A stretch of 64,000 nucleotides of DNA. Origin: Marsupella aquatica. Lineage: Eukaryota; Plantae; Marchantiophyta. The stretch spans positions 8,704,234 through 8,768,233 of the forward strand of contig OZ316894.1 of NCBI GenBank assembly GCA_973895155.1, written 5' to 3'. Below, in pieces: positions 7,941 through 60,749 of the stretch. Within the stretch, counting starts at the first letter, position 1; every line of letters begins with the position of its first letter. The notes beneath the pieces are model-generated. The model saw only the letters and a list, made by a program, of their open reading frames with translations, ran no database searches and was not told the origin of the DNA. Both the position numbers and the translations under genes were made by a program.

Positions 7941-10900
7941 ATGAAGTTGCATATCATTTCCCATAATGTACAGGGTTTGTATGGTATGGATAGAATATCC
8001 AGTTACGACAATTCATTCAACTGTGAGTAGGGAGAGTAAAGATGTTATCATATCACGTTTGGAAAGAGGCTGAATTCTTTAGTACTCCGGCTGGTGATGG
8101 AGCCATTGCTTTTCGGGATCCTGATGCTGACTCAGGTAAAGGTGGGTTGTTCATGGCTGTGGGCCCCAAGATGAGGTCATCTATTGGCCAAGTTGGTTTC
8201 CTCCCAAGTGGAAAAGGCATGTGGTGCACCTTTAAGCATCCTAAGCTAGGAGAGTTCGGGGTCTTTAATGTATATGCTTTGACGGGTCAAGATGGGGAGA
8301 AAGATCGTACCACTCTCTAGGGAAAAATTTTCCGTGAAATAAGGAATGATCTGGTGTGGATCATTACTGATGACTTCAATATGGTGGATAACTTACAAGA
8401 TCAAGCTGGTGGGCGTCCACATATGGTTGCTGGTAGAGAGAAAAGGGCATGGGATCACCTTAAGAGAAGAATGGGGTGGTTTGATATTTTTACTAGATAC
8501 CCTGGTCAGTTACGTTTTTCATGGTGCAATAGACGTTCGGTTAACTTGTTGCCAAGATCAGTACATATTTACAGACGTCTGGATAGATGCTATGCACCTA
8601 TAGAATCATCGAGCCTGGAGTTCTCTGTGATATCTAAGATTATACCAACGCAATATATGTCTGATCATCATTCTCTGAGCATCTATTGTACTGTTGGCAT
8701 TCACCATACTTACCCATCACGGTTCATTATGAATTCTGCACATTTTTCGGTCTTGAGCTTTCGACAAAAAATGACTGATTTATTCGTGGCGGAGCACACC
8801 AAAATAATGCGTAAAAAGCTTCCACCAGATAAAGTCTTGGAGATTTGTCTGAAGAAGGCTACTAATCTTGATCATGCTTGGGGTAAACAACAAGCTATGA
8901 TCAAAGTTTCTCAAGTATTATCCTTGAAAAAGTCACTATCATTGGCACAAGTTGCTCTAGAATTGGATCCACAGAATGTTGCCCTATAATCAGAACTCTT
9001 AGATTGTCAGCATCGGCTGAAAGAGATTGAAGATGGCAAGATGAAATGGATGCAAGAGGCATGTTCTCAGATACAATTCAACTCCTTTAAAGAAAGGGCA
9101 TCGGTCAATGAGATCAAAGGGTTGTATGATGGGGAAAATAAGATTTAGGGCGAATGGGACGGATCTGGCTAAGATTGCATCCTCATTTTACTCCAATCTT
9201 CTATCCTCTAAACACCGATCATCTGAAGCTGAGTTAAATGCAGTGTTGGATAAGGTTCAATTGAGGATTTTGCCAGAAGATCAGCAATCGATGGAGCAGA
9301 TGCTAGTTCTAGATGAAATTCTTGCAGCTACCAAAGCTTTAGGGAAGCATAAGCACTTGGACATGATGGGGTACCGGCTGAGTTCTTCTTGAGTTTCTAG
9401 GATTTTCTGGGCCCTCTTTTACTGGAGGCTTTTAAAGGCAGAGTAGAGGTTGGGAAATTTAACTCGAATTTCCTCAAAAGTACTATTGTCTTGCTACCAA
9501 AAAAAAGGATGAACTGAGGATTGAAAACAAACGTCCGATATCTTTGCTTACGGTAAGCTATAAGATTGGGACTAAGGCCTTTCAATTACGATTGATCAGG
9601 GTCTTGATTAAGCTTATTTCATCACAACAATATGCTTACCTACCAGGCCGCTCTATCCATCATACCATTATACTAACAAATGAAATGGTTGTCAAGGCTA
9701 TGGATGATCCGGATCCATACATTCAACATTGTCATCAAAGCCTTCGACAATGTTGAATGGCTATTCATCGAAAGGATGTTGGTCACAATTGGTTTTGGGC
9801 ATCGTTTCATTAATTTTTTCAGAGCAATTACGAAAGGAGCTTCTTCCAACATTCTGATAAATGGAAAGATCTCTTCTCCTTTTACTATTTCTCGTTCGGT
9901 TCATCAAGGATGTTTGATTTCTCCTCTGTTTTTTATCATAGCTATTCAAGGATTGGATAGTATGATATCTGATCATCTGGAGAAAGGGTTGTTGAAGGGG
10001 GTCCATTTCACGGATGTAAACGTGCATTTGGCACAACAATTTTATGCAAATAATACTACCATTGTTATCAAAACTGAAAAACAGAATATCGACAACTGTA
10101 AATGAATTTTTGAAGAGTTTGCATTGGCCTCTGGGCTGGGTTGCAATTGGGATAAGGCGTCGGTGGTTCTGTTGAGTAAGAATCCCATACCGGCTGAGCT
10201 GGAAGTTTTAAGTTGGAATTGGGAAAGTGTTGGTAACTTTTCTAAATTACTGGGCTTTATATTTGGTGCTGAAGGAATTGAGCATGCCAGCTCTCTGATT
10301 CGTATTCAAGGAATTCTGGAGAAAAAAATACTGTCGACGAAAAAATGACCGATGTCTTTTATGGCTTGGGTCTTATTTCTCAATCATATTATTATGGGAT
10401 CTTTATGGTTCTTTTTCACGCTGTGGAGTGGCTTTGATAAGGATATTCATGTCATCAAATTGATACTGATTAATTTTCTATGGGAAGGACAAGAGAGTTC
10501 GACTCATCATCGGGTTGACTTTTGTATACTCTCTCTTCTCAAGAAAGATGAGGAGTAGGCTTAATCTCGTTGGATCATCAGGTCACAGCACTAGCGGCTC
10601 GTTTCATTTTATTTGCACTAAAGGAAGGAGATCATCCTCTCCAGTTAATTCTTTGTTCACGCATTAAAAGTTTATCAGCGCACAAGTGGGGAACTTGGGA
10701 TTACTCTTGGGTGTACAATCAATGTCGCACTTTGTCTCAAGCTCGATCTGGAATCTGGTTCAATATTTGTCGTTATTGGAATAGGATAAAATTGTTGCTC
10801 CATTTTTTGGTCCCGGCTAATTTGTCTGCTTTATTGAATCATCCACTTTGGTCCCCGTCCATCAATTATATTGATATCAAATCAATTGGCTGCAAATTGA

Positions 10901-14889: not shown

Positions 14890-15849
14890 TGTTCTATCTT
14901 TTAGTAGTTGAATTTACAATTTACTCCCACAACATCTTGAGTTGATGGTACTTATAAATTCTTAACTCTGAACTCCAACATTTTTTCCAATGCATCCCTT
15001 AAACCTGAGACTACTCATTGTTTGAATCACGAGGTCTAATTCTACTATGCGACTTTTCTATAATTTTGTTAAGGATGTCATTTGTTAATTTTTCATTTTA
15101 AGTGCTAAAACAATTAACTTAGCTCTAAGTACTTAGTCTTACCTAGAGTATCTCAACACTCACTATTTAGTCTCTTTGACTTTCTACTATCTAATCGTAC
15201 CTCTTTTTTTACTTTATATCTATTTTATTCTTAATTGCAATTACATATAATTATAGATACTCTATTTTTACTCTAGTTAGTATATATACCTAGAGCAATA
15301 TCCAACATCAAGTTATAATGAAGGGTGATAATGAAGGGTAGGGATAAATGATACTGTAACAAAGGACATTGCATTGGAAACTTAAGAAAGAGCATGAACT
15401 TTGATAATTAGGTCATTCAATATTATTAGATTAGGGGATATCCATTAAATATTGGCTAATAGGGTATTTATGGAGACATCGATTTGAAAATAGTGTTAGT
15501 GGACTCCTATAATTTGTACGTACATAATATATGTATGGGTTGGATTTGGGATGTGGGCCAAAGGGACATAGTTCATATGTGCAACATTGTTGAATAAAGG
15601 TGGGTCATAATTGTAATTGTACTTTTTAATATTGTGTTCACATACATAATGCAATGTAGAGTCACTTATAAAACTTTGAAAGAGTTGCTTTAACTAAGAT
15701 ACAGTTGCAAGTTTCCAAATAGTTATAGATATGACTTCCCAAAATTCAGTAGAACTCAGTTAACAAGGTGTAACTAAGATGACACCAATAATTTTGGAGT
15801 CACTTTATTCTTCAAGATCTCACACACGTCATGTAAGGTAGGGTCTCAA

Positions 15850-16739
15850 ACATGATTCTTTTTCTCTAATGATGTTGCAACCATGGAAGCAACGAAGGAA
15901 GCAATTTGGTTGGATAGACTCATCATTGAGTGAGATCGTCACAGGGAATGTGAAGCTCTATTGTGATAGTCAGAGTGCGCTCCATCTTGTTATGAAGTAG
16001 GTGATGGATAACAAAATGAAGCACAAGTCTACATCAAGTACCATTTTATTAAGCAGACTATGTTTGATAATATGTTTGAGCTAGTCAAGATTGGTGATAA
16101 ATTCAACCCGACTGATACTTTTACCAAAGTGATTTATTTGGATAATTTTTCTAACCACCATGATGTGTTGCAGGTTTTGCAATTGCATCACAAGTAGATT
16201 AGGTTACATAACAATTACGTAGACATTGAGATATGCTCTTGCTTATTCCTTATATAGGCTACAGCTTAATTATGGTCTACTCTCGTTTAAAGAGGGAAAA
16301 ATCAATTTGTTTTTCTTTCCAGAACTTTCAGTTGAGTCATTATATAGGTAACAATCTTTACCCTTCCCTAGACTAGAGTCAAGGGGGAGATTGTTGGGAT
16401 TGACTCTTAGGTGTAGAGTTATGATTGTATCACAGTTAGGGCTAACCTTAGTCGCAGACTAGATTAGGTTAGTCATGTTAGGCACATACTATACCCAAGC
16501 GGTGTTTGATTGGATAGTGGAAACTCAGGCTCATTATTACGAAGTCAATTAAGAGATAGGGAGAGCTTGTGCTATGAATACTTGGTATGATCGATCAGCC
16601 TAGAATGCAGTAAAGCTCTTGTGTATTCCCATGGACGTAATCTCAAATGGAGGTGAACCATGTACCTCTCGATGTTGATACTTGTACATTGGATGGTTCA
16701 ATCATAGTTTATCGTTGCAATTGTTGTTTATGCTCAACA
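15850..16739 (+). mobile_element. Ty1/Copia retrotransposon 3' fragment (RNase H, PPT, 3' LTR)
   Basis: Translates to EATKEAIWL...VKLYCDSQSALHL...KYHFIK...KIGDKFNPTDTFTK, the Copia RNase H motifs. The polypurine tract AAGGGGGAGA (16381-16390) lies just before the LTR start TGTTGG. Confidence 0.9.
16392..16739 (+). repeat. Copia 3' LTR (348 bp)
   Basis: TGTTGGG...CTCAACA termini directly after the PPT. Homologous copies at 36014-36342 and 41459-41815. Confidence 0.85.
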
Positions 16740-17010
16740 AGATGGTTTACAATAAACTAAACAAGTAACAATAATTTATATATAGTGCAAATGTGAAGCT
16801 ATGCAGCTATCGACAACTTTGTCCCCATGCGGTTGTGGCCTGACCACCCAATGCATTGCCTGAGCCCAAGTTGCAAGAGATGGGGGACATGCATACTCCC
16901 TCCTCATATGTACATGAATTTCTTTTTTATTATAATTTGCATCTCGTCATATGTACATGAATTTTATTTTTATTATAATTTTCATGATGAATATATATCC
17001 TATGGTAATA

Positions 17011-17353
17011 ATTCAGCGCGATTCCAAATATCGATGCATATTAATGAGGCGAGAGGGAGGGTTTATAGGGTATTACAGTGTTGAGTATCGCGGTTACATC
17101 CGCTCACGGTTTTGGGCAGTCCGTACACCATTCGGGCAGCTTGTCCATTTTCGGCCATGGCACTCCCACACCTGTCCCCAAAATATGCCCAGGACTGTCC
17201 CTATTGAGATCCAAACCCATCCCGGGCCCGCACCCCCGATTGCACCAGCGTTGAAAGCCCCCTCTCGGGTCGCTTGCACTTTCACTCCGTCGCGATGTAT
17301 GCAGAAGGGATTGGTATTCCAGGGGTACGAGTTGAAGGGATGCGATACCTAAA
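17011..17353 (+). repeat. Left terminal inverted repeat of the MULE
   Basis: Reverse complement of 26325-26644. By hand count about 21 differences over the outer ~300 bp, mostly transitions, plus two short insertions near the inner end. Confidence 0.95.
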
Positions 17354-17869
17354 AAAGCAATTGGAGTCCAGAACATTCCTTCCCGCGCACACGACCCTTT
17401 GTCAGCATAGTGCAAGCCCTATTGCATACTCTTCCAATGGACGTTTTGGCAACCGACATTTGAGGTCAATGCGCATCTGGTTAGTGTTTGCATTACAAAC
17501 CATTCCCTCACAATGCGCTTCCAATGTTCACGTATTTTGCAGGGTGAATTCATTATTATGTACTTAAACACTGTTTGAATTGCGCAGAGAACTAGGTATT
17601 CTCAAGTCTCATCCAATTCATAGCGCAAACCGGCCGGTAAGAGAAAATCAATGTCGATGCCAACTTTGTTTGATGTGCAAGCAGCTGTGATGAGGGAGGA
17701 GACAGGGTACATAGGTCCATGTAGTGTCGTTGTTTTTAATTTCATTGCCACAAATTCTTTTCCAAAAAAGTTCCTATATTGAGATTGTACAGAGGTCATT
17801 CCAAGAGGGTTGTGTAAAATTTCAATAGAAGGTCCAAGGTAGAAGCATTGCAAACATGATGCGTTGCAG

Positions 17870-20800
17870 AATGGGACATATAGCGAGTTCTTCCGGTTTG
17901 AGTTGTTAACGGATGGTTCACTGGAGCCGAATTATGGGAAACCAGCTTTGCGGGCCGCTATTTGGGATGCAACACAAAATTTGTTGGGCCTGTCTACAGC
18001 TGCATTAGCCTGTATGAATCCACTAGATCAGTTCCAATTAATCCATGACGCTGTGAAGGGTGCGCCCCTTTGCAATGTTGTTTTCCAAATGAATCGCGGT
18101 ATACTGTCCATCAATGAGTTGGACGTTGTAGCATCAACTAGTACCCTGCTGCAGTCCCGTCTTTGGACCCAAACACGAACCCCTACACAGCCTGTCACAC
18201 CGCTCAACTCCCGAGCTCCACGCAGGGCATACCCTCCACGTTTACCATGTTCCAATGGCCTCAGCTTTGGAACACTTGCGTCAGGAGTCGTAGAATCCTC
18301 TCGTGCAACAAATTGCAGCAGTACCCCATCCATGGCAACCGCACAGTCACCTATAAGCGAAACCCAGGCAGTGTCGCGCACCACACCGACATCGACCACG
18401 GGAGACTCCTCACAGGTGGTACAGGAGGAAGGCGGTCACGATGATGACTTTTCAGAAACCCAAGGCACAATGTCATCCATTGTTCGATGCCTAGTAGAAG
18501 TTTTCAGCTCATCATTGGATGTGTACTCTGGGAGCAACCGGTAGTTGTAGAATGACTTTAGCGTTGGATTAACTTAGCATTCCATTTTGGAAGGAACTTA
18601 CTTTGTTACTCGCAGGCGCCTGAATGAACACTCATTGTTCGAGTGGCAGGACTATTGTATACCTATTTGCAGCAAAGTTTATTTATCTCAAAGACGGTGT
18701 CGTGCATACTATTCATCATTCCTTTCATCTGCTTTTGCTGCATGCCTTACATTTTATTGTATCCCCAGAACTCATTTAGTTTGCCATGAATGAATTGTCT
18801 CCCACATATCCATCTGCATTTCATTGTATACCAATCATTGTTCGACTCCATGCAAAATTGAATAATCAAAACGTACATTGTTATTCATTTCCTGAAATTT
18901 TCCTAAGCACGTACTGCGGTTGCACAAAATTACTTGCAGGTGTCAGGGTTTATGGCGCGAACAAAGCATCAGGTACTTTCCTTGCCATAGTTGACATGCC
19001 TTAGAGTAGTGTTTCATTAAAATGTGCATGATTATGGTAGGAATTAGGAATTATAGTGCTCATCCGGATTAGGGATTTCTCTAATTAAGTACAAAAGTTC
19101 TGTGACTTTACAATGTTAATCATTTTCTGTTACTATAATTCACTCTGTCACTCGCTCTGAAACTCACTCTGTCAGCGTCAATTCTTTTCAGGCTTCCAAG
19201 AAAAGATTGGCCATGTGGAGGTCTTCCACTCCATCCCCCCACCCAACTGACATGCACAGTCCCCACTTAGATGTCAGCCCCATGCCTCCACCAAACCTGC
19301 CGGTTCTTGCTCTACCACCACCACCCGGCCGTTTAAACAAGGATGGGCCAAGTCATCCGCCCCCTCTTCCTAGCGTACCCGGTCTGCTCACTCCCATGTT
19401 GGCTCTACCCTCTCCATGACCGTATGTGCCCAAGCCGCCTTCGCCAAGTCCAAGTGGCCCCGTCCATAACACAAACTGTGCGGTGCCCCAGGCCACTGAA
19501 GTTGACGATGTGGTGACGACAAAAGTAGTGTCGGGTCCCTCCGGTGGCATGGTCCTCGCGTCATGTGGCACAAAAAGAAAATCCAACGGTGGAGAACCAG
19601 AGTTAGCGCGTCCCACCAAGTTTACTCCACGAAAAGCAAAGGTGGGGGTTCAATATAGAGAGCAGTCGACAAGCTCTCGGCAAAAAGAAAATATACTTAA
19701 AGCCATTTCAGATTCAGGCAGTCCAGCGGAATCTGAACGTGATGCCCGAAAGACACGCAGTCGCAAAGACAGTAAAAGTCAAGTGGACTCTTTCCATTTG
19801 AAATGTGCGTCCAAGCCTCTCAAGTTTTGCAAATGCGCAGCTTTACCCGAGCCATGCAAGAATTGCAAAATTGTAAGAATGGACCTGCCCCCTCATCTTC
19901 CTATTCTTCTTCTTGTATGTTATTGTACAATTATATAGTGGGCTTCCCTCACAGTTGTTCTCTGATGTTCCATATAGGAGTCACACGTCATAACCCATGC
20001 AAAGGAGGGAGTCCATTATTCTGTGTATGGGGCCGGAGCAGTCTGTAAGATGTTGCCATGTAAGAATGTGGTTTTCAAGACCCATCGCACATATGGCTAC
20101 CATGTTTTCAAGAAGCATGGCCTCATCAGCCAAGGTACCCCTCCAGCACTATATACAAATGATCCTGTTGCACAACAACAACGTGAAGCTAGGAATGCTG
20201 CTAGAAGGAAGCAACCAAGAGCTGTTTGCTCACCGCAATACTACAACGTAAGGGCAACCCTGTGACAACGATGGAGCATGGCAAAGAGACGAGTCAAGTG
20301 AGTTTACAGCTGATCATACCTGTGCAAACTGGATGGGTGGACTGTGCTTTGTACATGGCAAAGAGTGGTTTTCCAATGCATAAACTAACAAAATTCTCGC
20401 TTTTCTATGTAGGTCAAGTACTCAACGCAACTTTGTCACACGCTTCGAGCAAAACCGGGCACAAACTCCCCAACCAGTCGTTGAATCTGAACCAATTTTC
20501 ATTATTTTCTTCAAGTACATCATGCCTACACTTAGCTTCAGCGCATGGGATAGTCTGATAAATGATCGCGATTGGGCTTGCTTGCAGGCATTGCTCTCCC
20601 AATGCCCGCACACGTCATATGTTTGTTCATGGGTGCAGCGCGCCCTTTCTGAAATTGTTGATGGTAGATACGCTCATTTAGACAATTCTGACATTGAGCG
20701 CCTCACTAGAACAGCTTCACTGTTGTCAACTTTCTTTGAGCCATTGGGTGGCTCATTCGAAGCCATTGAAGTCCATGATGCCATGGCAGTCCAACGCCAA

Positions 20801-21645
20801 CTGCTTTGTGACCAAGCACTGAAGTGGATGTGTACAAAATGAGACAACCTTCTTTGGAATGAGGAACACGGATGGCCACAGTATCAGACATTGGGTGATC
20901 ATGAGTACAAACAGTGGAAGGCCGACCGCAAACAAAAGGCCATTGACACTTACAAGCCGAACATTGTGACAATGTACAAGACAGTTTACTCATGCACAGA
21001 TGAGGAAGCAGTGAAGCAGGTACATTACCATGAAGCTCAACTGAAATTGTGTTGCATGCACGTTGGTTTCAGTATTCAATCAGGAAACTTAAAACATGTG
21101 TGATCTTGCATGTATAGGTTGAGCTGGAGGCAGTGTGGACGGACACATCAGACGATGAGCCAATATCAGAGTCTGATGCTGAAGCGAAGGATGAACGCCT
21201 CTGCCTTGACGTTGATGCGGATGACATTTTCCAAGAGATACGCCCACACATTGTGTTGGACAAGCCTGGCAGTCCTGTGGATCCAGAGTTTGAAGCACTT
21301 CCGCCATCTGAAAATGATAAGCTTCTTCCTTTAGAGGGTGAACTAGTGTCACCACTTCCATGCATGGCTGGTGACGCTGGACCATCCGAGCCATGGCTGC
21401 AGCCAAACTTTGTTGAAGAACCTCCTATGGAGCAAGCAGATGGCATTCAGCTGCACAGTACTTTGCCGATGCCCAAAGTTGGACCGCAGTCACCTCAGGC
21501 CAATTCCATAAGTGGCACTTCGGGTGGCGAGGACCTGCAATTCACTGCCCCACAGTCGCTTGTGGAACTCATGGAGCGAATTACAGCAGCGTCAGCTAAG
21601 TGCAATGATGTTCAAAATTTGCTAGACTCCTTGGACAGTCCGTAG
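17870..21645 (+). pseudogene. Second (partner) gene of the MULE; unknown protein with Pro/Ser-rich region, Cys cluster, C2H2 zinc finger and acidic tail
   Basis: Frame-consistent GT-AG exons 19192-19872, 19978-20297, 20413-21019 and 21118-21645. Upstream exons are less certain (~17870-18490, 18940-18972; start possibly near 17437). Motifs CKCAALPEPCKNC and CKMLPC-x13-HVFKKH. Three in-frame TGA stops at 19417, 20263 and 20840. Confidence 0.75.
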
Positions 21646-22253
21646 TGACCGAGTCTCCTTAGCAAACTTTGTCATGTGTAGTTTCCCAGACACAAACGTG
21701 AGTTCACATGTTGGGTATGTAGTTGCAATATTTGGAGGCCATCTTGCTTGGCATGTGACTCGGATTTTGTTATGCATAGTTACTTAGGGTCTTACTTGAA
21801 CGTCAAAGGACGATATGTTTGAATGATTACTTTTGAGTTTTGGAAGTGAGCCGTTACTAGGAGAGATGGAAATCCTGTGGGTCCATTGAATGATTATCCA
21901 AATATATAAAGTTTTCCAAATGTTTTTCACAGTTTCAGTATCCAGCCACGACAAGAACTGATTGCACGTGTTGCATATGTTGTTGTACCTAGGCATTGCG
22001 CTTTGTATTGCAATACACTGATAGATGATAGAAACACACAATATATAGTTCACACCATGTCATTCTCAGTCCCATGCAATGTTGACATTACAATGTCAAC
22101 ACATATATTGAAGCAACGTTATGTACTGAGGCAGTGACAGTGATGGAACAAATGGGCTTCACATCATGTAATTAAAATGGCGCTGCCATGCCAGAGGCGC
22201 AAAGAATCGCAAACACAATAAAAAATTTATTTTTTGGAATTCCGCTAAGTGAA

Positions 22254-25200
22254 CTAGTCGTCCGCAGATGACTCTACATGAGGGACAACACCTGGACGAC
22301 CGGTGGACCCTACTCCTTCAGAAAAAGCTTTCAAAATGATTGCAAAATTGGGTGACATTGCCCATGCCTGGCTGGACCCTATGTTTATATTTCCAAGTTG
22401 CATGCCCATTGTCGTCTGGGTGAGAGGAGAGTTGAGCACGTTTGGTTCTGAGGCGACACTAAGTACCTCCTCAGTTTGAAATGGCGGAGTGGCTCTTGTT
22501 TTGACGTTCCGGCCACTCTTATACGGTGTCGTGAGGGCACTTTTGCGTATGCGCTTAGTCAGGGCCTTTGTTGTTGGTTTCTCGTCGTGAATGTGGTCTG
22601 TCATTGCATTCGCCAAGTCTATAAGCGCGTCTATAGACTCCTTGTCAAATCTGCCTTGAAATGATGGTTGCTTTTCCTTTCTTTTCACCTGGATTTTCTC
22701 AGGTGCATTGAGGATGGTTGCTTTTCCTTTCTTTTCACCTGGATTTTCTCAGGTGCATTGAGTCCTGACACTAAATTGTGCAAGTCACCATGTGGATATG
22801 GGGCCTGGTTCTCCTTGTTGGTTGCATGATTGGTCTTCCCGTTCCGTTTTTGTGTCCTTTTAGCGCCCATCATTTTGTCAACCCAGCCTCGTTTCCTGAC
22901 TGTAGTTCTATCAGTGCCTTCGGCCGAGCTGAGTTTGTCATGACCCGCTTCTTGCTCTAGCTTTCCCACGTTCTGTTGTGCCTCTCTCTTCAGGCAAGAT
23001 TCCACCCAATGCTTCAACTCAACCAGAGCTTGCTTAGCAAGGGTTGGGTGGTACGAGATGGAGTTGTAACATCTCTCAATGAGTAGTTGAAATTCCTTCA
23101 ACTGCGGTGAAACCTCAATTTTGTTCGTCACATCTTGGTGGCCTGCCTCCCAAATATCCTCGTTCTCATATGTCAAGCAGATACTGCCTACCTCCGTCGC
23201 CAGTGGCAGAAGCTCTCCTTGTTGTACCTGAAAATGGTGGTCTAGGCCACCGAAAAATGAACCCATCTTTGTTCCCAACTGATGGAGAATTTCCAATTCT
23301 GACATCTTCTATGTAAGCAACAAAAATTTCATCTGCACAAGAAGAGGTCCTGTCGTGCATGAGATGGCGCATGGAAAATAGAATCCATCATTGTGTAACT
23401 GATGTCATTGGTAAGGGTCATATTTCACCTGATGTTTGCAGGCATTGCCCTGAAGCGAGTATCCACATGTACACGAGCAACTATCTTTGTCCCAGTCTGT
23501 GACTACGTGTTCCTTGGGACCCACACCCAAATAGTTGGATGATGTGCTGCGAACTGAGGCACAACTGGCCTCTCCACACCGAAAAGTGGTCACATTATCA
23601 TCTAGGATGGCCTTGGCCCGTTGTAGGGACTTGTGCACATGGGCTTCAATGGTCTTATTTCAAATTCGGCCCTGGAATTTGTCAGCCAAAATACACCAAT
23701 AGTAATTTTCCAGCACTCTTATTCGCCCAAGTAGCCAAGGAATGGAGCGCCCGACAATACTGTAGCGACCAGCCTTCAACTCCATCTTCAAAGTGTGATG
23801 CCAACGCTCGATTCCCCCATTTGTGTTTTGATTGGCGTGGTTGTAGCCCCGTAATTTTATTGCCCAGCTACACACCTTGCTGTGCCATTCTCGCTTGTAA
23901 TAAACAACAAATCCAGGTTGACTGTTTGTCCATCGGTTCATAAAGGCTTCAGACTCTTCAGTCAAATTTGCAGGGCATGCAAAGTCACGTTAGGCTCAGA
24001 ATTGACTACGGAGGTGGACTCACTCGTTACAAATGATGTAAACATGTGGAGGAGTGTGGCATGGACAGAATGAAAATGGAATTGAACTTACCGGGGCCAT
24101 TTGAGTACATGATTGCACCCAATTCTGCATTAATCTGTGCTTTGGCAAATGGGCAAAAGACTTTGGAGATTATGTTCTTTGTCCAGGCCCTTCGAACGTG
24201 CCATGTGCAGAAAGTAATATGCACTTCCGGGAATACCTGCCTGCAGTAAACATTCACACATTCCAAACGTTACACTAGGTCATCCTCTCTATTAGACTCA
24301 TCCTCTCTATTATGCACCACACCGCCCAATTTGATTCATCTGGAAATGTTTAGACACTCCTGCAGGTTTTGCACTAATATACCTGATTGCTGCTTGCTCC
24401 TCATCCGCTACATCAATGATCCAACAATTTGGCTTCCAAGGGAGGATCAGATTTAGCTCAGCCCTTCTGGCATTGACACGATCCTTCAGGGCATTCAGGG
24501 TTCGGCCCACATTTGCAGCTTTGTATGATTGCATAAGGGCAAAAGCAACGGGGATGGCATTCTGAAATTTGTCAAAGACAACCACCGTGTAAAAGGGAAA
24601 CTCCAAAACAAAGAAATAGGCAACAGTGTCGGGTCAGCTCATGTTTTATGGTACATGGCAGCAGCAGGGTATAAAAATTCAGGTTCTGACAATGCACTAC
24701 TTACCCCAAGGTGATTGGTGCCAAAAGTGGCATCAAATGCTACTGGCCCCTCATGCCCAAGTTGGGCTAACTTCTTTTGTTGCCAAGGAGACGATCACAT
24801 AAGAATGAAAGGTTGGTTGTGTGCTTTGACCTATGGCTGATACAAGAGAACTTGTTCTTCATTTTGAAGCACCCATAGTTTTGTCGCTTGCGCTTTGTCT
24901 GAGCAATAGTCGGGTTCACGCCGTCGCATACAATCCCTCACTCTCTGGACATCCCTAGGAGTGAGTTGCATGTCTCTTGACATGATGACATCCGCATCCT
25001 CATCTGGGTGGTCCTTACACCACCTAGTAAGGATTTCCTCAAAATGTGCATCAACAATTGCCCTGGCAGTCAAGCCTGCCCTAAGGTATCGTTCAATTTT
25101 GGTCCTTAGCTTCAATGAGATTCTTGGAGCAATATGTGCATTGCATTGAAAGGCAGTGGGATCTTTCAGGCCATGGCAGATATTTCCAGCCCTGTCCAAA

Positions 25201-25977
25201 TGGTCTTTCCGGATCCATTCGATCAGCACAGCCCCAGGCCGGTCCTCATATTTTGTGGAGGTGAATGAGCATCTGCAACCACGTCGTACAGACATTCCTG
25301 CAGTGCTCAAAGAGGAGAGTGAGTTGAATTTGGAAATGCATTTGGAAACAGCAAGTTCTCCCCAAAGCAAACAATGAGATTGTGAGAAAAAAGGCGAGGT
25401 TCACCTGTTAGCGTTTTTCTCTTCAGAAAGATTCCCGTTTCCTTGCATTTGAGTGTGTCTGGTACCTTCGTTGATTTCCAGCCGCGATAATCCTGAGGCC
25501 CATGACAACAACAATATAACGTAGTTGTCTTGACCAAAGGACGTGTCTTGTAGATGCGGTTCTCCACCATTTATCGGATAGTGAACTGTGTATGGAAATT
25601 GTCGCGCATATTCTCACCCCAAATGAAATCTTCACCCTTCCCTCTGGGATCCAAGCATAATCAGACTTCGAACCAAACCATTGAAGAGCATTGAGTTCAA
25701 ATTCACCAGGCCGTGGATTTTGAATTTGGTCACATTTCAAATATTCAGAGTGGCTTTTCCGCATGGGTGGACTTGCTGGTGGCACGGTATCATTGCGAAC
25801 CTCGTCCTCGATAGTAAGGCCACGTAGATGCTCTAAGACTTGATCCAGAGCATCCGGTTCAACTCCATCCGTGCTGGAAATATGATTTTCATCTATACTG
25901 TCCATTCTGTGCAAGCGCGGTATGTTTGTTGCACTGTTCTCCTTGTTGGTACTCTCTTGCAAAATTGGGTCGGACAT
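22254..25977 (-). pseudogene. MULE transposase (DDE domain + SWIM zinc finger), disrupted
   Basis: Exons approximately 25977-25405, 25297-24705, 24600-24383, 24240-24092, ~23967-23429 and 23332-22254. Catalytic motifs AFDATFGTN (D at 24732-24734), WIIDVADEE (D at 24412-24414), FCTWHVRRAW (CxxH) and NTNGGIERWH (E at 23807-23809). SWIM finger CSCTCGYSLQGNACKH; N-terminal RRGCRCSF...H...CHG. Disrupted by several stops, a frameshift near 25634 and a 50-bp duplication. Confidence 0.92.
22663..22762. repeat. Perfect 50-bp tandem duplication inside the last transposase exon
   Basis: GATGGTTGCTTTTCCTTTCTTTTCACCTGGATTTTCTCAGGTGCATTGAG occurs at 22663 and 22713. It shifts the frame; removing one copy joins ORFs 22685-23305 and 22254-22688. 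Confidence 0.93.
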
Positions 25978-26324
25978 TGGCACGAGCGTGGTGCCTTCAC
26001 ACAACCAACATATGATGTGGCGCCAAGTGCAGAACTTCTACCATGGATTCAAAGACATCGAATGCACCTCAGGTGGTGACATATTAGCACGCTGTTACCA
26101 CACGAATGATTGATTTTGGTACATTGCGCGACATTCCATTTCATTCGACAGAGCACACAGTTGTGGCAGAGAAGGAGAATGTGCAGAGTGCCTCGCAACA
26201 TGTCGCGGTTACATTCCCTTGCAGGAGTTCAAGCATGGGAGTCTCCGTCCCGCTCCCTCACAATTTTGAAACAGTATTCCTCATTTGAATGCGTACATAA
26301 CCGAGATTAAGGTGCCAAAAAAAA

Positions 26325-26644
26325 TTTAGGTAACTCGTACCCCAATCCCTTCTGCATACATCGCGAAGGAGTGGAAGTGCAGGCGACCCGAGAGGGGGGT
26401 TTCAGCGCCGGTGCAATCGGGGGTGCGGGCTCGAGACGGGTGTGGATCTCAATAGGGACAGTCCTGGGCATATTTTGGGGACAGGTGCGGGAGTGCCATG
26501 GCCGAAATGGACGAGCTGCCCGAATGGTGTACGGACTGCCCAAAACCGTGAGCGAATGTAACCGCGACACTCGACACTATAATACCCTGTAAACCTTCCC
26601 TCTCGCCTCATTAATGTGCATCAATATTTGGAATCGCGCTGAAT
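26325..26644 (-). repeat. Right terminal inverted repeat of the MULE
   Basis: Inverted copy of 17011-17353. The ORF-track translations RTCPQNMPRTVPIEI and HTCPQNMPRTVPIEI appear on opposite strands. Confidence 0.95.
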
Positions 26645-27710
26645 TGATAATACCCCCATATGCGCAATATTAATGAGTGAGCAATTAATGAGGGCGGAAG
26701 CACACATGCGAACGCCCCATTCATCAATTCAATTTTACAAAACCTTCCTTGCGCCTGGCGCAGTCTTGGAGGAGCGAATCCGAGGCGGACAGGCGGTCCT
26801 GTGTGCAGTACCCGGCGCGAAGGTAATCATGACAGTTCTCCTTCGTTCGGTACTTCGGTTCGGCTGATTCAGCTGATACGGTACTCCGTATGCGAGTTTG
26901 ATTTGATCAGACGGTGGTCGGTCGGGTCCTCTTCAACTGTCACAATGTCATGGGGCCCTGGTGAGATTATTAGTAGTAGTAGTAGTAAGAGCGTGCTGCT
27001 GCATGCACGCGAGCAGAACGAGGCCTCGGCGAGATGAAGAAATTACGTACATGGTAGTCCGTTAGTCAGTGTAACTAGCAGTGACTCCCTCGGTGTCTCG
27101 GTGATCACATCGCCCGCACGCAAATCCCAGTAATAAGTTCGGCTGCCTTGGAATGCTGCACCTGCCTGCCAGGAAGGCTGAGGAAGCCAGGGAGGAGCTC
27201 AAGTGGAGCTGCGGGTGGTAGGTGGGAGAGGTCATGAAGGTACTGCCGCCCTGCTCTCTTGTGTGATACGATAGCCGATGGGACAGAGGGTGATCGAGCG
27301 ACGACGACAGCGAAGAGTCGTTCGGTCCCGGCTTTGCGGTGTGGGCACTTTCCTTTTCTTGGAGCTCAGCTGAGCTGAACTCTCGTACTGACATGCGACC
27401 AATGTCTCACACATCCGGTCGAAAGCTTTTTCTCTGTGGGATTGCTCGTTTGTCACATTTTCATATTTAGAGTGAGAAACCTTGGGGCGACGGAGGTGCA
27501 CGGTGCGAGCGACTGGACTCGCATTAACGACGAAACTGGCTGCTTCGTTGGGCACGGTGGGATTTGAATGGTAGTAGTTGTGTCGTTTTTTGTTGACATT
27601 CGTGGAGAGGTTTATGATTCACGTACTCTAGGCAAGCGGTGAGAGAACAGGGAGGCGAGGTGTCTTGGTATAATTATATTGGCGAAAGCGGTTCATCCTG
27701 ATTCTGCAAA

Positions 27711-30700
27711 ATGTATAATAAGTGGGGAGGAGATCCTGTACAATTGGACGGGTCAGTCTCTGACGATGACCGCAGCAGAGTGAGCAACACAGACATAGAC
27801 AGAGCCTCTGTGAAGAGTCTGGAAGAGACCCAACAGAGCTGGCTCCTTGGGGCCGGCGAGCAGAAGAAAAAGAAGGGAGTGGATCTGGGATGTATCATCA
27901 TCAGCCGGCGAATGTGCTGCGTTTTGTTATCTCTATTTCTGTTTTGTGGAGTCGTGGCTGGCCTCACAGTTCTCATTATCAAAACGCTTCCAAGGCATCA
28001 TACTCCCGAGCCCGTCGCTGACAACTACACTCAGGCCCTGCACAAAGCTCTCCTCTTCTTCGATGCTCAAAAATGTGAGTCTTTCGTCTGTCATACTTTC
28101 TCGTTTGTTCTCGATGCGTTGTTCACCCAGACTACAAGAGATAGTTAGCAGGTCGGAGAGCTTCCCTTCCGTTCGTTATCATACGTGGACAATCGCTTAA
28201 CATCCACGTAAGTTAGTACTTCAAACAGCGCATTTATAGGGAGTGGCCAACTGTTTCAGAGAGTCGAGAGTCTCGTTGGTCACCCGTTTGGCGCCTTGAT
28301 CAGTTTTCGTACCCGGTCATTCCCGTGAGGATGTTGACAGTCGTGCTCGAGGTGCAGTTGGCAATTTCATATTCTTACTGTCGTACTACCTGTCTTGATC
28401 TGCTGGCTCAAAATGTCATGAGAAGGGCCTGTAGGGATCATATCGTCATGTAGCAGAAGTTTCACAGAAATATTTCCCATCGTTAAATTTCGTTTGTGCT
28501 TGGAGCTCTTCGTTCCGTTGGTTCGGTCGAATGCGAAATGTTCAATGAATAATGCATGGGCGCTTGCGTCGTTCAGCTGGGAAGCTCCCTAAAGGTGGGA
28601 TCCGTATCCCTTGGAGAAGTGATTCTGGATTGAGAGATGGATTGGATAATCCAGGAGGTATAAGAAAGGATCTTGTTGGAGGTTACTACGATGCGGGAGA
28701 TACTATCAAGTTCACTTTCCCGGGCGCCTACGCACTGACGATACTGAGTTGGAGCGTTGTGGAATACAAGGCGAAGTACGTTGCACTCAAAGAGTATGAC
28801 CATGTCCGGGACCTCATTAAGTGGGGCACGGACTACCTATTCAAAACTTTTAATTACACGAATGTGAACAAAACAAGTATAGCATACATCTTTGCTCAGG
28901 TAAGTCTTCTCTCTTCGCCCATCGTGTTTATGCCTTCTTCAATCCTTTGAAAGGGTTTTCTGTTTTGCGTTGGGTTTTCTTTCTTGTTTATCTGTTCTGA
29001 AGAAGCTCGCTTTGATCGCTTCGTGCTTCTGCGTTCTTATAGCATTGGAACGTCTGTCTCACCTACAGTATAATTATCGCTAGAAACATTTTATGTCTTG
29101 AAAGCCAACGGGGAGTCCACTGTGAGTGTAGGCGGATGGCCAGGTTTTCTTCCTCAATAGAAATTTTATACGTTGCAAAATTGTGCTAGACGGAATTTTC
29201 TATTGAGAATGTTGGTCCTGGCACATGTAAAGGGGGCAATTTTCTGTGTAGGTTGGATCGGGATCTCAACCTACGGCTTCTCAGAACGATCACTACTGCT
29301 GGGAGAGACCGGAGGCCATTGACTACTCGCGTTACGCTTATTCTGTGAATGCCGGGCCGGACCTTGCTGGGGAAATGGCAGCTGCAATGGCAGCTGCCTC
29401 GATTGTCTTCAAAGATCAGACTAGCTACTCAAACAAGCTTTTGGCCGCTGCGAAGTCTCTGCTATTTTTTGCTGAAGACAAGGGCAAGCGTACTCGCTAC
29501 ACTGCTCAAATATCAGATCCGGATTCTCTTCGTTTTTACAACTCTTCGGGATATTGGGATGAATACCTCTGGGCCAATGCATGGCTATACTTCGCCAGCG
29601 GCAATGTTTCATATCTTTCCAGGGCGACAACTGCTGGCCTGGCTCGAAATGCCAATGCAGGCAATGTCGGAGCTCGCTTCTACGGTGTCTTAAGCTGGGA
29701 TAATAAACTTCTAGGTGCCCAGGTGAGACAGAACTACAGTGCACTACAACTGTGCCTCGAAGGATTCAATTGGCGGTCTTTTGATTAACAGTCCCTCTAT
29801 GCTGCTACTGTAGTTGGTCCACGTTCGTGCCCATTTCAGGACAGGAACGATGATTTCCGGCTAATATCGCGACTATGCGTTAGGTTCTTGACAATTTGTT
29901 GAGCCCTATCGTTGATTGTGCTTATAAGATATTAAATTCTGTTTGCTGCTAGGTACTCCTGACAAGGCTGAGACTCATGGAGAGTCCACCGTATCCATTT
30001 GAGGATCTTTTGAATCATTACAATAACGAGACCAATCTTGTCATGTGTTCCTACTTGCCTAAGTACAAGCACTGGAACCAAACTCGAGGTTAACAACTGC
30101 CCCCCCCCAACATTCTAGTCCTTTCAGCTAAGAGCATGGATTTCCATTGCCGTCCCTTTCATCTCTAGTGAAGGGACTTATGGTTCAACCATGCCAAGCG
30201 TTTCATGCGTGGAATTCTGTGTTTTCAGCATTTTCATGCGAGCGTTTTCGTAACCTGATGTGGAATTCTGTGTTTGACACAGGTGGTTTGACTCTTCTCA
30301 ATTATGGCCAATCCTCCCCTCTTCAGTACACTGCCACTGCAGCCTTTGTGGCCTCTGTATTCGCAGATTATTTGATAACTTCAGATATCCCCGTGTGGCC
30401 GTGTGGCCCCGAATTCTTCCCCGCTGAGAAGTTGAAAGAATTTGCCCGTTCACAGGTGTGTTTCCTGCCAGCATGCTCCTCAACTGTATGCCACGAGTAA
30501 ATGGAAAGCCCTCTTCGTCGTGCAATAATTGCACTAGCCATATTCGAAGGATTCGTCTTCTGTTGTACCCCTGCCTTCAGCATTTGGTTGCAATTCCATG
30601 GCTTGTCAAATTCAGGGGAGTCTTATCACATACTGTGATTTGTAGTCAGACAGGCTTCATGCAACGGACTTGTTCTGATCATCTTCGTGTGTGGGTTTTG

Positions 30701-31118
30701 ATTTCCACAGATGGACTACGTGCTTTGGAAAAACCCAATGAAGATGAGTTATGTTGTGGGCTTTGGGAAGAAGTATCCACAACAAGTGCACCACAGGGGT
30801 GCATCGATTCCCAATGACAAGACTAACTACGGTTGTACTGGTGGCTTCAAGTTCAGGGATTCACATGCACCTAACATCCACGTATTAAATGGTGCAATGG
30901 TTGGTGGTCCAGACAAGAACGACAAGTTTCTGGACAGGCGCAATAACTATACATATACGGAGCCTACCCTTGCTGGGAACGCTGGCCTTGTAGGGGCTCT
31001 TATTTCACTTTCAGAAGTCACTCCTGGTGGAGTGGATCGCAACACTATCTTTGCGAATCTTCCATCTATGTATATTCCTCCCCCTCCTCCTCCTTCCCCA
31101 TGGAAACCATCCCCATGA
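27711..31118 (+). CDS. KOR1: KORRIGAN-type membrane-anchored endo-1,4-beta-glucanase (GH9 subclass A), 624 aa, 6 exons
   Basis: Exons 27711-28074, 28577-28899, 29252-29722, 29953-30088, 30283-30455 and 30711-31118; all GT-AG and frame-consistent, 1875 nt in total. Motifs QQSWLLG..KKKK.VDLGCII, a TM helix, [33 protein letters not shown] and a Pro-rich C-terminus PPPPSPWKP. Confidence 0.97.
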
Positions 31119-45968: not shown

Positions 45969-46156
45969 CATCCTAGACAAGTAGCCTGTGCACCTTTCTT
46001 GGTTTATATTTCTCAAGACAAGTTCTTGATGGGGCACACCCAGATAAACCCTCCCCTCGGGACAGGTGTCCCCTGCCCAGACTGCCAGTGAATTTGAAAT
46101 TTGAATTTACATGAATAACCTTACATTTCTCCCCTGCCAGAAGCTGTAAGTTTTTT

Positions 46157-46326
46157 TCTCACTCAATTTTGATCATTTTCTAGTGAGGTTTTTTTTCTGA
46201 AGTGTAGATGAGATCTCACTCAATTTTGATCATTTTCTTGTGTGGTTTTTTTCTGAAGTGTAGATGAGATCTCACTCAATTTTGATCATTTTCTTGTGTG
46301 GGTTTTTTTTGAAGTGTAGATGAGAT
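46157..46326. repeat. Minisatellite, 3 x 56-57 bp
   Basis: TCTCACTCAATTTTGATCATTTTCT.GTG.GG(T)n..GAAGTGTAGATGAGA starts at 46157, 46214 and 46270. Confidence 0.92.
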
Positions 46327-47558
46327 GTACTGTGTGAGAAGTGGATTGCAGCATTAATTTACAAATAATATTTTACCAGGGATCAATGGGACGGCCATTG
46401 CAAGAGCACCCAGTTGCAAACTCAACTATTGGGTTTCAAGAGTGAGTACTCTAGGGTACTTATATGCAGATTAGTGATCTAATTAAAAGAATAGCCCTGG
46501 CCCGTGGATGACACTGTTGACAAGGTAGCTCTAACAGCGTAGGTGGTAGGTGGTAACTGTGCAGTCAATGCAGCAAAAGAACTTTGCCCACAGAGCCGTC
46601 CAACTGAGAAATTTTTAAAGATTTGTGGCTGGTCCATGCCTAATTTGTTTGGAGGGGCCCCATCAAGCAATTGTCTTAGTTTTCTCAGTTCACACATTGG
46701 ACGTAACTTCCAACTCAAGATTTGTAGTTGTTCAAGAATACTATACTTATTTCCGGGTATCAATAAACCCATTCCAATACTCTGTAAACCCTGAACTGTC
46801 CAAGAACTTTTAGGAGGTCAAAGCTTTTTGACCATTTTAAATTTGTTGTCACGACCATTTTGGAGTAATTATGGTAACCAGGTTTTGAAAATGGATAGGG
46901 GCCCTCAGGTACTATTGAGAGATTTGGATAACTCACTTTGGTGTTTGGTGGCAATGTTCTAAGACGAATGGAGGAGAGTCCTCATTTTCGATCCCCACTG
47001 CTTAAATTTTCAGACTTATCTCTCCCCTGCAAGAAGCTGTCTCTTGCATGCCAGATGTGGTACATTCAGGTGCGTGGTAGTGTTGCCCGGCCACTCTTGC
47101 CAAACTATGTGGACAGCAGCAATAGTTCAATCTTGAGTTACCTGGACGGCTATGACGACAAGGAAGCCAGCAGAATGCGGGACATAATGCCAATTTGTAT
47201 GGGGGCTCTGTTCCAGCTGCTCTCTGCCAAAGATGAGCAGGGATACCACTTGTCTTGCTATTGAGGCCAATGCCTGGTCACACTTAGATTTCACATTTTA
47301 TCATTCTGTAAGAGACCCCAATTCAGATTAGGGTCTAACTGAATTGGAAACTGTCCATTTGAAGAAAGTCACCAACACATTGTTGGGGACCCTTTTGAAG
47401 ACTCTCACATGTGAGAAGTATCCAAGGTTACCATAGTTAAATCCTGCCACCTACTAGTAATTAACCTATGTAAGGACTGGGCCAGGCATCTGCTCAGAAT
47501 GAAAGCTGGCAAATCCACTTATGGGGATGTCTCAACTACATGACCTTCCTTGGGCTGC

Positions 47559-48062
47559 ACTATGAAAAATCCATGAAGATAGTTCACAGATCCCATCAGT
47601 TCCCCCAAGACCCCCATGAATGTAATTACTTTGCAGGGGTAGACGCTGTATTGTAGGCTACACTGATAGATTTTGTCTATGGCAGACCCACTGTTAGGTG
47701 CCCCGCCAGCACCTGTTCACTGGCCGGTCTTTGGGGGTTTGCTCCTTCTGAGGTGGTTAAATTTCCTGTTTGGGTTCCTTTCCTTGGGGCCTGCTTCTCT
47801 CCTGGTTCCGACTATGAAAAATCCATGAAGATAGTTCACAGATCCCATCAGTTCCCCCAAGACCCCCATGAATGTAATTACTTTGCAGGGGTAGACGCTG
47901 TATTGTAGGCTAGACTCATAGATTTTGTCTATGGCAGACCCACTGTTGGGTGCCCCGCCAACACCTGTTCACTGGCCGGTCTTTGGGGGTTTGCTCCTTC
48001 TGAGGTGGTTAAATTTCCTGTTTGGGTTCCTTTCCTTGGGGCCTGCTTCTCTCCTGGTTCCG
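47559..48062. repeat. 252-bp tandem duplication
   Basis: Copies 47559-47810 and 47811-48062 are nearly identical with a few substitutions. AC microhomology at the junction. Confidence 0.95.
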
Positions 48063-60563: not shown

Positions 60564-60749
60564 AGTTTTATGTCCTCTGTTGTTTGTTGCGATTCTCACT
60601 ATGCGCTTGATATTCAAATGTGACGGGTGCACTACAATTTTAGTGACTAAAACTGTAGTTTTATGTCCTCTGTTGTTTGTTGCGATTCTCACTATGCGCT
60701 TGATATTCAAATGTGACGGGTGCACTACAATTTTAGTGACTAAAACTGT
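60564..60749. repeat. Perfect 93-bp tandem duplication
   Basis: Copies 60564-60656 and 60657-60749 are identical. Confidence 0.95.

Follow-up and report, generated by a model that had tools for sequence, protein, structure and literature searches.

The window analysed here, a stretch of 64,000 nucleotides from contig OZ316894.1 of Marsupella aquatica, holds an element bounded by long terminal inverted repeats (TIRs), the left one at 17011-17314 on the plus strand and the right one at 26342-26644 on the minus strand. When 17010/17011-17314 is aligned with 26342-26644/26645, the two TIRs are identical at 284 of 304 aligned bases (93.4%), and they continue for about 15 bp past a 9-bp indel, reaching some 320-330 bp in all, which bears out the ~320-340 bp and ~93% identity given in the first-pass annotation. 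The best target-site duplication, of 8 bp with one mismatch, flanks both TIRs (17003-17010 and 26645-26652, with seven of the eight bases shared). Long TIRs and a target-site duplication within the range of 8-11 bp, given for MULEs in PMC6446971, are thus both found here, as in the Mutator superfamily. Three genes are enclosed, with the transposase on the minus strand and two further genes, ORF-B and ORF-C, on the plus strand, and the convergent stops at 21643-21645 (plus) and 22254-22256 (minus) are 608 bp apart; that stops at 21645 and 22254 face each other across ~600 bp had been read correctly. Contigs from organism A span the left and right junctions of the element with no differences, in runs that may represent the source sample itself. 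At the left junction, a contig from organism B reaches just 28 nt into the element, and given that this falls under the threshold of 31, an insertion common to organism B is not claimed.

The transposase gene (22254-25977, minus strand, six predicted exons and a probable ATG at 25977) has a homologue in the liverwort Calypogeia fissa, CAM6089789.1, with which it shares 33-63% identity. The catalytic residues are a D at 24734 (FDATFG), a D at 24414 (IDVAD) and an E at 23809 (IERWH), accompanied by a CxxH at 24209 and a SWIM finger at approximately 23430-23500, i.e., the DDE/MULE domain, CxxH and SWIM finger of the Mutator superfamily are all present. The C. fissa protein scores 44.4 bits against the Pfam MULE family (cut-off 27.6), and single exons of the window remain under the Pfam cut-offs (MULE 11.7 bits, SWIM 18.7 bits). 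The gene may resemble Arabidopsis At4g13970/At1g60560, identifiers that a literature search did not return. Its damage comprises five in-frame stops, a frameshift near 25630-25650 and a perfect 50-bp tandem duplication, located by repeat comparison at 22663-22762 (plus strand), which shifts the frame and is missing from one diverged copy in the contig comparison. Given that in-frame stops are also carried by ORF-B (two) and ORF-C (three), the copy is dead, and the transposon can no longer be called complete, as it had been at first.

ORF-B (17651-18544, plus strand) is intron-less and has 297 codons, counted from an ATG at 17651 or 17657, and its extent follows from colinear homologues in C. 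fissa, such as CAM6096920.1, which shares 37% identity with it over 296 residues, from start to stop. Two stops, at 17780 and 17840, interrupt the frame in the window copy. An early model had placed an intron at 17708-17789 and a first exon in frame 1; it was given up because the homologues run through in a single frame. From the 12 matches that formed the homologue set, P0011 (2652 aa, without an aligned stretch) was removed as spurious, and P0010 (73 aa) was excluded from the ORF-B tree. The layout consists of an N-terminal RPA70-C-like OB fold, a disordered Ser/Thr/Pro linker and a conserved C-terminal helix, and the C-C-C-H ligands of a predicted zinc ribbon are kept in 11/11, 10/11, 11/12 and 12/12 of the alignment rows, respectively. 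ORF-B and its homologues have 150-300 aa and a single OB domain, as against the four of full RPA70.

The likeness to RPA70-C comes from the model of one homologue, P0004, for which this domain was the best match in both of the fold searches. In Foldseek the match has a probability of 0.98 and an E of 0.04, and no match reaches E 0.001; in VIA it has a Z of 9.5 and an rmsd of 3.7 over 111 aligned residues with 17% identity, and the top four of 48,161 chains (Z 9.1-9.5) are all RPA70-C or Teb1 OB-C. The model itself is modest (pLDDT 59, pTM 0.52, residues 28-80 below 50). The Pfam RPA families stay below the cut-off, sequence searches of the PDB with ORF-B returned nothing meaningful, and a viral fold library has no match at E 0.001. 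Binding of single-stranded DNA is not implied by the fold, because RPA70-C on its own may be mostly an assembly domain.

The second plus-strand gene, ORF-C (18952-21645), has 718 codons in five predicted exons; its exon models, like those of the transposase, the micro-exon and the shared transcript discussed below, are predictions from sequence. Exon 1 (18952-18972) is a micro-exon of seven codons, MARTKHQ, running from the ATG to a phase-0 donor (CAG|GTACTT), and is followed, through GT-AG introns in frame, by exon 2 (19192-19872), which has a basic ASKKRLA start, is proline-rich and basic and includes a Cys cluster. Exon 3 (19978-20297) encodes a C2H2-like zinc finger (C-x4-C-x12-H-x4-H), exon 4 (20413-21019) a helical domain, and exon 5 (21118-21645) an acidic low-complexity tail and a terminal helix before the stop at 21643-21645. 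In-frame TGA codons lie at 19417 (exon 2), 20263 (exon 3) and 20840 (exon 4). The predicted start, MARTKHQASK, matches the H3 tail ARTKQTARK (PMC8166343) at six of the first nine residues, with K4 and K9 in register, and on this gene model it has the M-small-R-x-K form of H3 mimics; plant CENH3s also begin with MARTKH (PMC11288735, PMC10264360). In the six frames of the window MARTK occurs only here, and resampling gave it in 3 of 200,000 cases, in a test devised after the motif was noticed. For the remainder of the protein the searches brought little: exon 3 has weak Atlas matches to C2H2 clusters (0.89-0.91, recognition below threshold) and PDB sequence matches at E 0.7 or worse only, exon 4 has a poor structure model (pLDDT 45), no homologue among 229 candidates of more than 250 aa and no Atlas match, and no ORF-C homologue was found in the protein and Atlas searches made with exon 4. 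The partner gene first described as unrecognised is therefore recognisable in part, through the RPA70-C-like fold of ORF-B and, by prediction, the H3-tail-like start of ORF-C.

The plus strand had been taken for a single gene, so that the element would have two, as in MuDR, with ORF-B and ORF-C spliced into one large partner protein. Both do lie on the same strand behind one TIR, and two weak donors of phase 0 (18416 and 18419) would allow an in-frame splice to the acceptor at 18939 and so into the MARTK exon. However, the ORF-B homologues, themselves gene predictions, stand alone as proteins of 150-290 aa, and in 5 of the 13 that were aligned the same C-terminal motif is found at the same place, where the helix and stop would be lost in a fusion; a word-based search for ORF-B among proteins of more than 399 aa, itself a weak search, gave none among 314 candidates; and an H3-like motif is most effective at a free N-terminus (PMC8166343). 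One spliced partner protein is, then, very improbable, although such a fusion may occur as a minor isoform, and ORF-B is very probably a gene separate from ORF-C, which brings the count to three, with the layout VANDAL-like in number and no longer that of a MuDR-like pair.

The regions of ORF-B and ORF-C are multi-copy in all four DNA runs, where the summed contig depth relative to the neighbouring GH9 gene is 4.3-8.6x for ORF-B, 3.7-7.8x for ORF-C and 5.2-9.8x for the transposase, mostly from contigs less than 95% alike; such a depth does not equal copy number. Many diverged contigs cover the whole element in each of the four runs, as expected of dispersed copies, and include a deletion copy that fuses 21081 to 22660, also present in all four, and a diverged second copy over the region of ORF-C exon 4 (20593-21749). 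The element reads as a damaged member of a Mutator family with three genes and multiple copies, probably one of liverworts. In C. fissa, ten ORF-B homologues are spread over contigs of eight sizes, and a single 90% cluster takes in four of the ten, on three contigs, which is the pattern expected of a mobile gene. The transposase CAM6089789.1 and the ORF-B homologue CAM6089791.1 belong to a contig of the same size (27,222,350 bp) and are two accessions apart, with CAM6089790.1 between them and in the same order as here (~0.001 by chance). This pairing, read from accession numbers and contig size, speaks for an old association that the element itself encodes. Searches for related loci found none in metagenome contigs by transposase patterns (0/190 and 0/100 stretches) or in viral contigs by ORF-B patterns (0/50).

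These copies bear on whether the extra genes are passive old cargo, with ORF-B a piece of a host or Helitron RPA70 and the start of ORF-C a captured first exon of CENH3. Gene fragments are captured by MULEs (PMC6446971) and RPA is carried by plant Helitrons (PMC9033089), and the shared MARTKH opening and the lack of any homologue found for ORF-C would fit such an origin. Against it, the zinc ligands and C-terminal helix are retained among ORF-B homologues that are only 25-47% identical, and one of these is, by accession order, near a related transposase in C. fissa; in Selaginella, Pack-MULE cargo and its parent share 93-99% identity (PMC6839031), as against 17% for ORF-B and RPA70-C. The differences among copies are also biased by codon position: the 10 of 10 listed in ORF-B and ORF-C exons fall at position 1 or 2, with the window copy the odd one out in each (p ~0.017 if positions are equal), in a count that rests on 40 of ~2600 differences. 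Passive cargo is therefore an unlikely account, and we hold with good confidence that both accessory genes are element-encoded. The nearest relatives of ORF-B being dispersed multi-copy genes, and a transposase being present, the element does not resemble a Pack-MULE, and the earlier view of a TIR-bounded MULE with extra coding capacity of its own, other than recent Pack-MULE cargo, is supported.

Among the known systems, VANDAL21/Hiun of Arabidopsis (vanA, vanB, vanC) likewise combines a transposase with two accessory genes. Unlike VANDALs, which to our knowledge lack long TIRs, the element in the window has them, and its non-coding parts hold no tandem target-motif arrays of the VANDAL kind (minimum length 20), the only repeats inside it being the coding duplication of 50 bp and some short stretches that occur twice. 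One of the VANDAL21 accessory genes opposes silencing (PMC6446971, PMC5735166), and VANC is MAIN-like and dicot-specific (PMC13547354). No VANC-type (MAIN-like) Pfam domain was found on single plus-strand exons, and none of seven plus-strand exon pieces matches any Pfam family above the cut-off, which agrees, as far as Pfam on these pieces goes, with the claim of a partner resembling neither MURB nor VANC. Maize MuDR (mudrA/mudrB) shares the long TIRs and genes reading inward from both ends, but has two convergent genes instead of three, with accessory proteins that appear to be of other kinds; protein searches with ORF-B and ORF-C pieces gave no match named as MURB. The MuDR accessory protein is required for insertion, and MURB binds the N-terminus of MURA (PMC12973397).

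The RPA-like ssDNA-binding proteins of plant Helitrons are also transposon-borne (PMC9033089) and similar to ORF-B by predicted fold, and the zinc-ribbon OB fold of host RPA70 DBD-C is common to the model of the ORF-B homologue. Unlike both, ORF-B belongs to a cut-and-paste TIR element; its one OB-C domain, whose zinc ligands are C-C-C-H, is followed by a long disordered linker and then a terminal helix, and the identity is 17%. A hAT of Pyrenophora tritici-repentis is also a three-ORF TIR element with H3-derived coding sequence (PMC3538342), although there it is a whole histone in a fungus and here a predicted nine-residue tail on an unrelated protein of a plant MULE. The predicted ORF-C start has the M-small-R-x-K form that PHD readers can bind in H3 N-terminal mimics (PMC8166343), which are human or viral proteins, unlike this transposon accessory protein.

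Taken together, we favour, with somewhat better than even confidence, a dead three-gene MULE copy whose RPA70-C-like and H3-tail-like accessory genes are likely element-encoded. In a working family member, the transposase gene would be read inward from the right TIR and its product would cut and paste the element. ORF-B and ORF-C would be driven by a promoter within the left TIR or close to it, possibly through one transcript that yields ORF-B when unspliced and ORF-C when spliced. At 17637, 14 bp upstream of ORF-B, lies a strong donor, and at 18939, 12 bp upstream of ORF-C, an acceptor; a splice between the two would therefore take out ORF-B, and in the leader tested one short upstream ATG would then precede ORF-C. 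ORF-B could, at a little under even chances and judging from its modelled fold, bind ssDNA at the excision gap or the insertion site, aiding integration or copy-increasing gap repair. Tentatively, ORF-C may be a zinc-finger protein that regulates chromatin, its ARTK...K9 tail engaging the readers and writers of H3K4 and H3K9 or acting as a decoy for them, and it would keep the family active, doing the job of VANC by other means.

The three genes may also have other jobs, with ORF-B a decoy that enters host RPA/CST-like complexes through its OB-C and terminal helix, and MARTKHQASKKR no more than a basic stretch for nuclear localisation in an ordinary transcriptional activator. The fold searches do rank the RPA trimerization core and OB-C domains from telomere proteins at the top, ORF-C begins with a stretch rich in lysine and arginine, and its C2H2-like finger and acidic tail are typical of activators; nevertheless, a match to H3 that is in register, includes both lysines and has a micro-exon of its own argues against a mere basic stretch, and these other jobs appear improbable. 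The fullest version of the reading favoured here remains speculative: an old liverwort Mutator lineage would have evolved, independently of MURB and VANC, a pair of proteins of its own, namely a private RPA70-C-derived ssDNA binder for transposition and an H3-tail-mimic zinc-finger protein (K4 and K9 on the micro-exon) that acts against silencing as a decoy or recruiter of H3 readers and writers. Alternative splicing of transcripts from a single promoter in the TIR would yield both.

Few accessory proteins of MULEs are known, most of them still lack an explanation, and among them only MURB and VANC are known to have tested roles. A literature search found no report of an H3 N-terminal mimic as a transposon accessory protein and no description of this family in the open literature, with single MULE matches to the Pfam RPA-OB and histone families as possible exceptions. 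A sequence-specific regulator with an H3-mimic tail could become an epigenome tool. An accessory pair with recognisable parts offers testable ideas on the integration and copy gain of MULEs, as well as on the resistance to silencing of transposons outside the flowering plants, and the three-gene MULE layout would have arisen more than once, with unrelated cargo. If the H3-like tail works as proposed, this would be a transposon that uses virus-style histone mimicry against the silencing of its host.

The Mutator-like transposon (MULE) at 17011..26644 is bounded by terminal inverted repeats (TIRs; 17010/17011-17314 and 26342-26644/26645) in which 284 of the 304 aligned bases are identical and 17 of the 20 substitutions are transitions. 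The TIRs claimed in the first-pass annotation are borne out by this identity and by the target-site duplication that flanks the ends when these are set at 17011 and 26644, which has 8 bp with one mismatch and falls within the 8-11 bp range of MULEs (PMC6446971).

The GC content of the element is ~46%, against ~35% in the DNA to its left, and the host GH9 endoglucanase gene begins ~1 kb beyond its right end. This gene (27702-31118), which we take to be KORRIGAN-like, has an N-terminal membrane stretch, and the element is inserted within its upstream region. The TIR motif ATTAATGAG (17040; 26607 in reverse) occurs twice more just beyond the right TIR, at 26669-26692 (the window contains 4 matches, where 1.1 would be expected), possibly as the remnant of a related end or through a target preference, and a 43-bp tandem duplication (16900-16985) lies 25 bp to the left of the element. 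Elsewhere, a very high-copy repeat remnant (15568-16700) has a depth hundreds of times that of the host gene, its loose ends presumably being of copia-type retrotransposon origin. Broken LINE-like reverse transcriptase remnants (8321-10105, RVT_1 match), near-perfect tandem duplications of 252 bp (47559-48062) and 93 bp (60564-60749), and 34-bp inverted arms 595 bp apart (46015-46677), possibly a MITE, were also observed, together with a 710-codon open frame (54508-56640), which is Glu/Arg/Gln-rich and coiled-coil-like, contains 36-bp and 120-bp tandem repeats, and had no Pfam match.

On the minus strand, the spliced transposase gene starts at about 25977 and reaches 22254; it encodes FDATFG, IDVAD, CTWH and IERWH motifs and a SWIM finger. 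When its exon 2 was used as the query, one of 218 candidates matched, the Calypogeia fissa protein CAM6089789.1, which exceeds the Pfam MULE cut-off and whose alignment covers most of the gene, with an identity of 24-63% by piece. The element had been read as complete, which does not hold for the window copy, as in-frame stops interrupt the transposase (five, together with a frameshift near 25630-25650 and a 50-bp duplication), ORF-B (two) and ORF-C (three, all TGA). At least some of the transposase lesions are private to this copy, given that, in contigs of four public DNA runs, Arg replaces the stop at 23662 (in all four runs, and in the majority of the contig depth in three), an additional base is found at 25630 in some of the contigs, and the duplication is absent from one diverged contig.

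The single large partner gene proposed for the plus strand dissolved into two, since homologues align to a stand-alone ORF-B (17651-18544), the remainder being the predicted ORF-C (18952-21645). In a full HMMER search, the stop-free stretch 17843-18175 matched 12 proteins, comprising seven C. fissa proteins, four Logan proteins and a protein labelled P0011, which was rejected as spurious; one cluster yielded three additional C. fissa homologues. The homologues (73-289 aa) align to one window frame, 17651/17657-18544, from start to stop (CAM6096920.1 with 37% identity over 296 residues), the same C-terminal helix motif occupies the same position in 5 of the 13 aligned, and four candidate zinc ligands are conserved in 11/11, 10/11, 11/12 and 12/12 of the covering rows. 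Because of this full-length alignment, with the motif and ligands kept, ORF-B is, on sequence comparison, one intron-less gene of 297 codons, and its fusion with ORF-C into one gene is very unlikely. A strong donor (17637) and an acceptor (18939) flank ORF-B on either side and, as they bracket it, one transcript from the left TIR could yield both genes, giving ORF-B when unspliced and ORF-C when spliced.

The fold was modelled on P0004, an ORF-B homologue, from a 15-row alignment, and the top match of this modest model (pLDDT 59) in both fold searches was the C-terminal zinc-ribbon OB domain of RPA70 (RPA70-C), with a probability of 0.98 and E of 0.04 in Foldseek, and Z of 9.5 and rmsd of 3.7 over 111 residues in VIA-align. 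Only 4 of the 48,161 chains reached Z >= 8 in VIA-align, namely RPA70-C (three) and Teb1 OB-C, with more RPA and telomere OB domains ranked below them. Sub-threshold Pfam matches (Rep_fac-A_C, E 0.08, in one homologue; CDC24_OB3, E 0.01-0.12, in three) agree with an RPA70-C-like fold. We infer that ORF-B may bind ssDNA, a function that the fold by itself does not show.

The ORF-C model has 718 codons in five exons, separated by four canonical GT-AG introns of 219, 105, 115 and 98 bp, and no homologue was found among the protein candidates or in the Atlas and PDB sequence searches. The N-terminal third of the predicted product is rich in Pro and basic, the tail is acidic, and the model further contains a Cys cluster, a C2H2-like finger (weakly supported in the Atlas) and a helical domain. 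Exon 1 is predicted to have 21 bp, and the predicted spliced start, MARTKHQASKKR, is identical in register at six of nine residues, K4 and K9 included, to the N-terminus of histone H3, ARTKQTARK (PMC8166343); the CENH3 of poplar and Chionographis starts MARTKH (PMC11288735, PMC10264360). Across all six frames of the window, MARTK occurs only once, at this predicted start; when the 647-bp gap was resampled 200,000 times, 3 of the resamples contained it, the test having been devised after the motif had been noticed.

The public runs that contain the element are these four DNA runs, from two organisms (A and B), with no run recorded as RNA among them. Their contigs were placed on it at 80% likeness, and most contigs over it are <95% alike (962 of 1221 in X1, a run from organism A). 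The summed contig depth relative to GH9 was 4.3-8.6x for ORF-B, 3.7-7.8x for ORF-C and 5.2-9.8x for the transposase and, since such a sum is not a copy number, is taken to mean no more than that each of the three genes has several diverged copies. A deletion copy that fuses ORF-C (21081) to the 3' part of the transposase (22660) was found in 4/4 runs, its junction having just 30 letters on the shorter side. The organism B copy over 21598-22689 is ~97.5% identical, against ~99% for the GH9 exons of organism B, and may represent this very insertion in a closely related organism.

Among the 40 differences listed, from which codon positions were tallied (~2,570 more exist), all 10 in ORF-B/ORF-C exons fall at codon position 1 or 2 (p about 0.017), the window copy deviating from the remaining copies in each, and at one the other copies have Gly, as in homologues; for the transposase, 6 of the 8 listed do so, with the window copy deviating. 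The 10 C. fissa ORF-B homologues lie on contigs of eight different sizes, four of them, in one 90% cluster, being spread over three contigs. CAM6089789.1 (transposase) and CAM6089791.1 (ORF-B homologue), found independently, are on an equal-sized contig and two accessions apart, a proximity expected by chance at about 0.001, and the gap, if gene order follows accession order, as this linkage assumes, leaves space for one intervening gene, as in the window element. The ORF-B sequences form two clades, and since CAM6089791.1 falls in the more distant one, the association of transposase and ORF-B appears to be old. Judged by these closest relatives, the window would come from a liverwort or another bryophyte. 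It is unlikely that the accessory genes are old cargo carried passively.

MULEs with several genes are already known (MuDR, VANDAL, Mutyl), and RPA or OB folds go unmentioned in the searched passages of the Arabidopsis TE atlas (PMC13547354) and of a 2026 preprint (10.64898/2026.08.24.746577). Three liverworts, Calypogeia not among them, were represented in a survey that covered 1007 plant genomes. In its Table S6, with 1846 clusters, a single entry gives REPA_OB_2 as an accessory domain of MULEs and another single entry places Histone on the transposase of a MULE; these two, which receive no comment in the main text, are a thin precedent for the accessory genes of the element. RPA is also transposon-borne in Helitrons (PMC9033089), and a fungal hAT has a whole H3 gene aboard (PMC3538342). 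Searches confined to the literature turned up no description of the element's family, and none of a transposon accessory protein that mimics the H3 tail.

Given MULE biology, the DDE transposase would move the element by cut-and-paste. It is improbable that the same three genes perform different jobs from those proposed here, in which ORF-B, by analogy with MURB, which is required for insertion and binds MURA (PMC12973397), would most likely help the handling of ssDNA in integration or gap repair, and ORF-C, by analogy with VANC (PMC5735166) and histone mimics (PMC8166343), would most likely counter silencing via its predicted H3-like tail.
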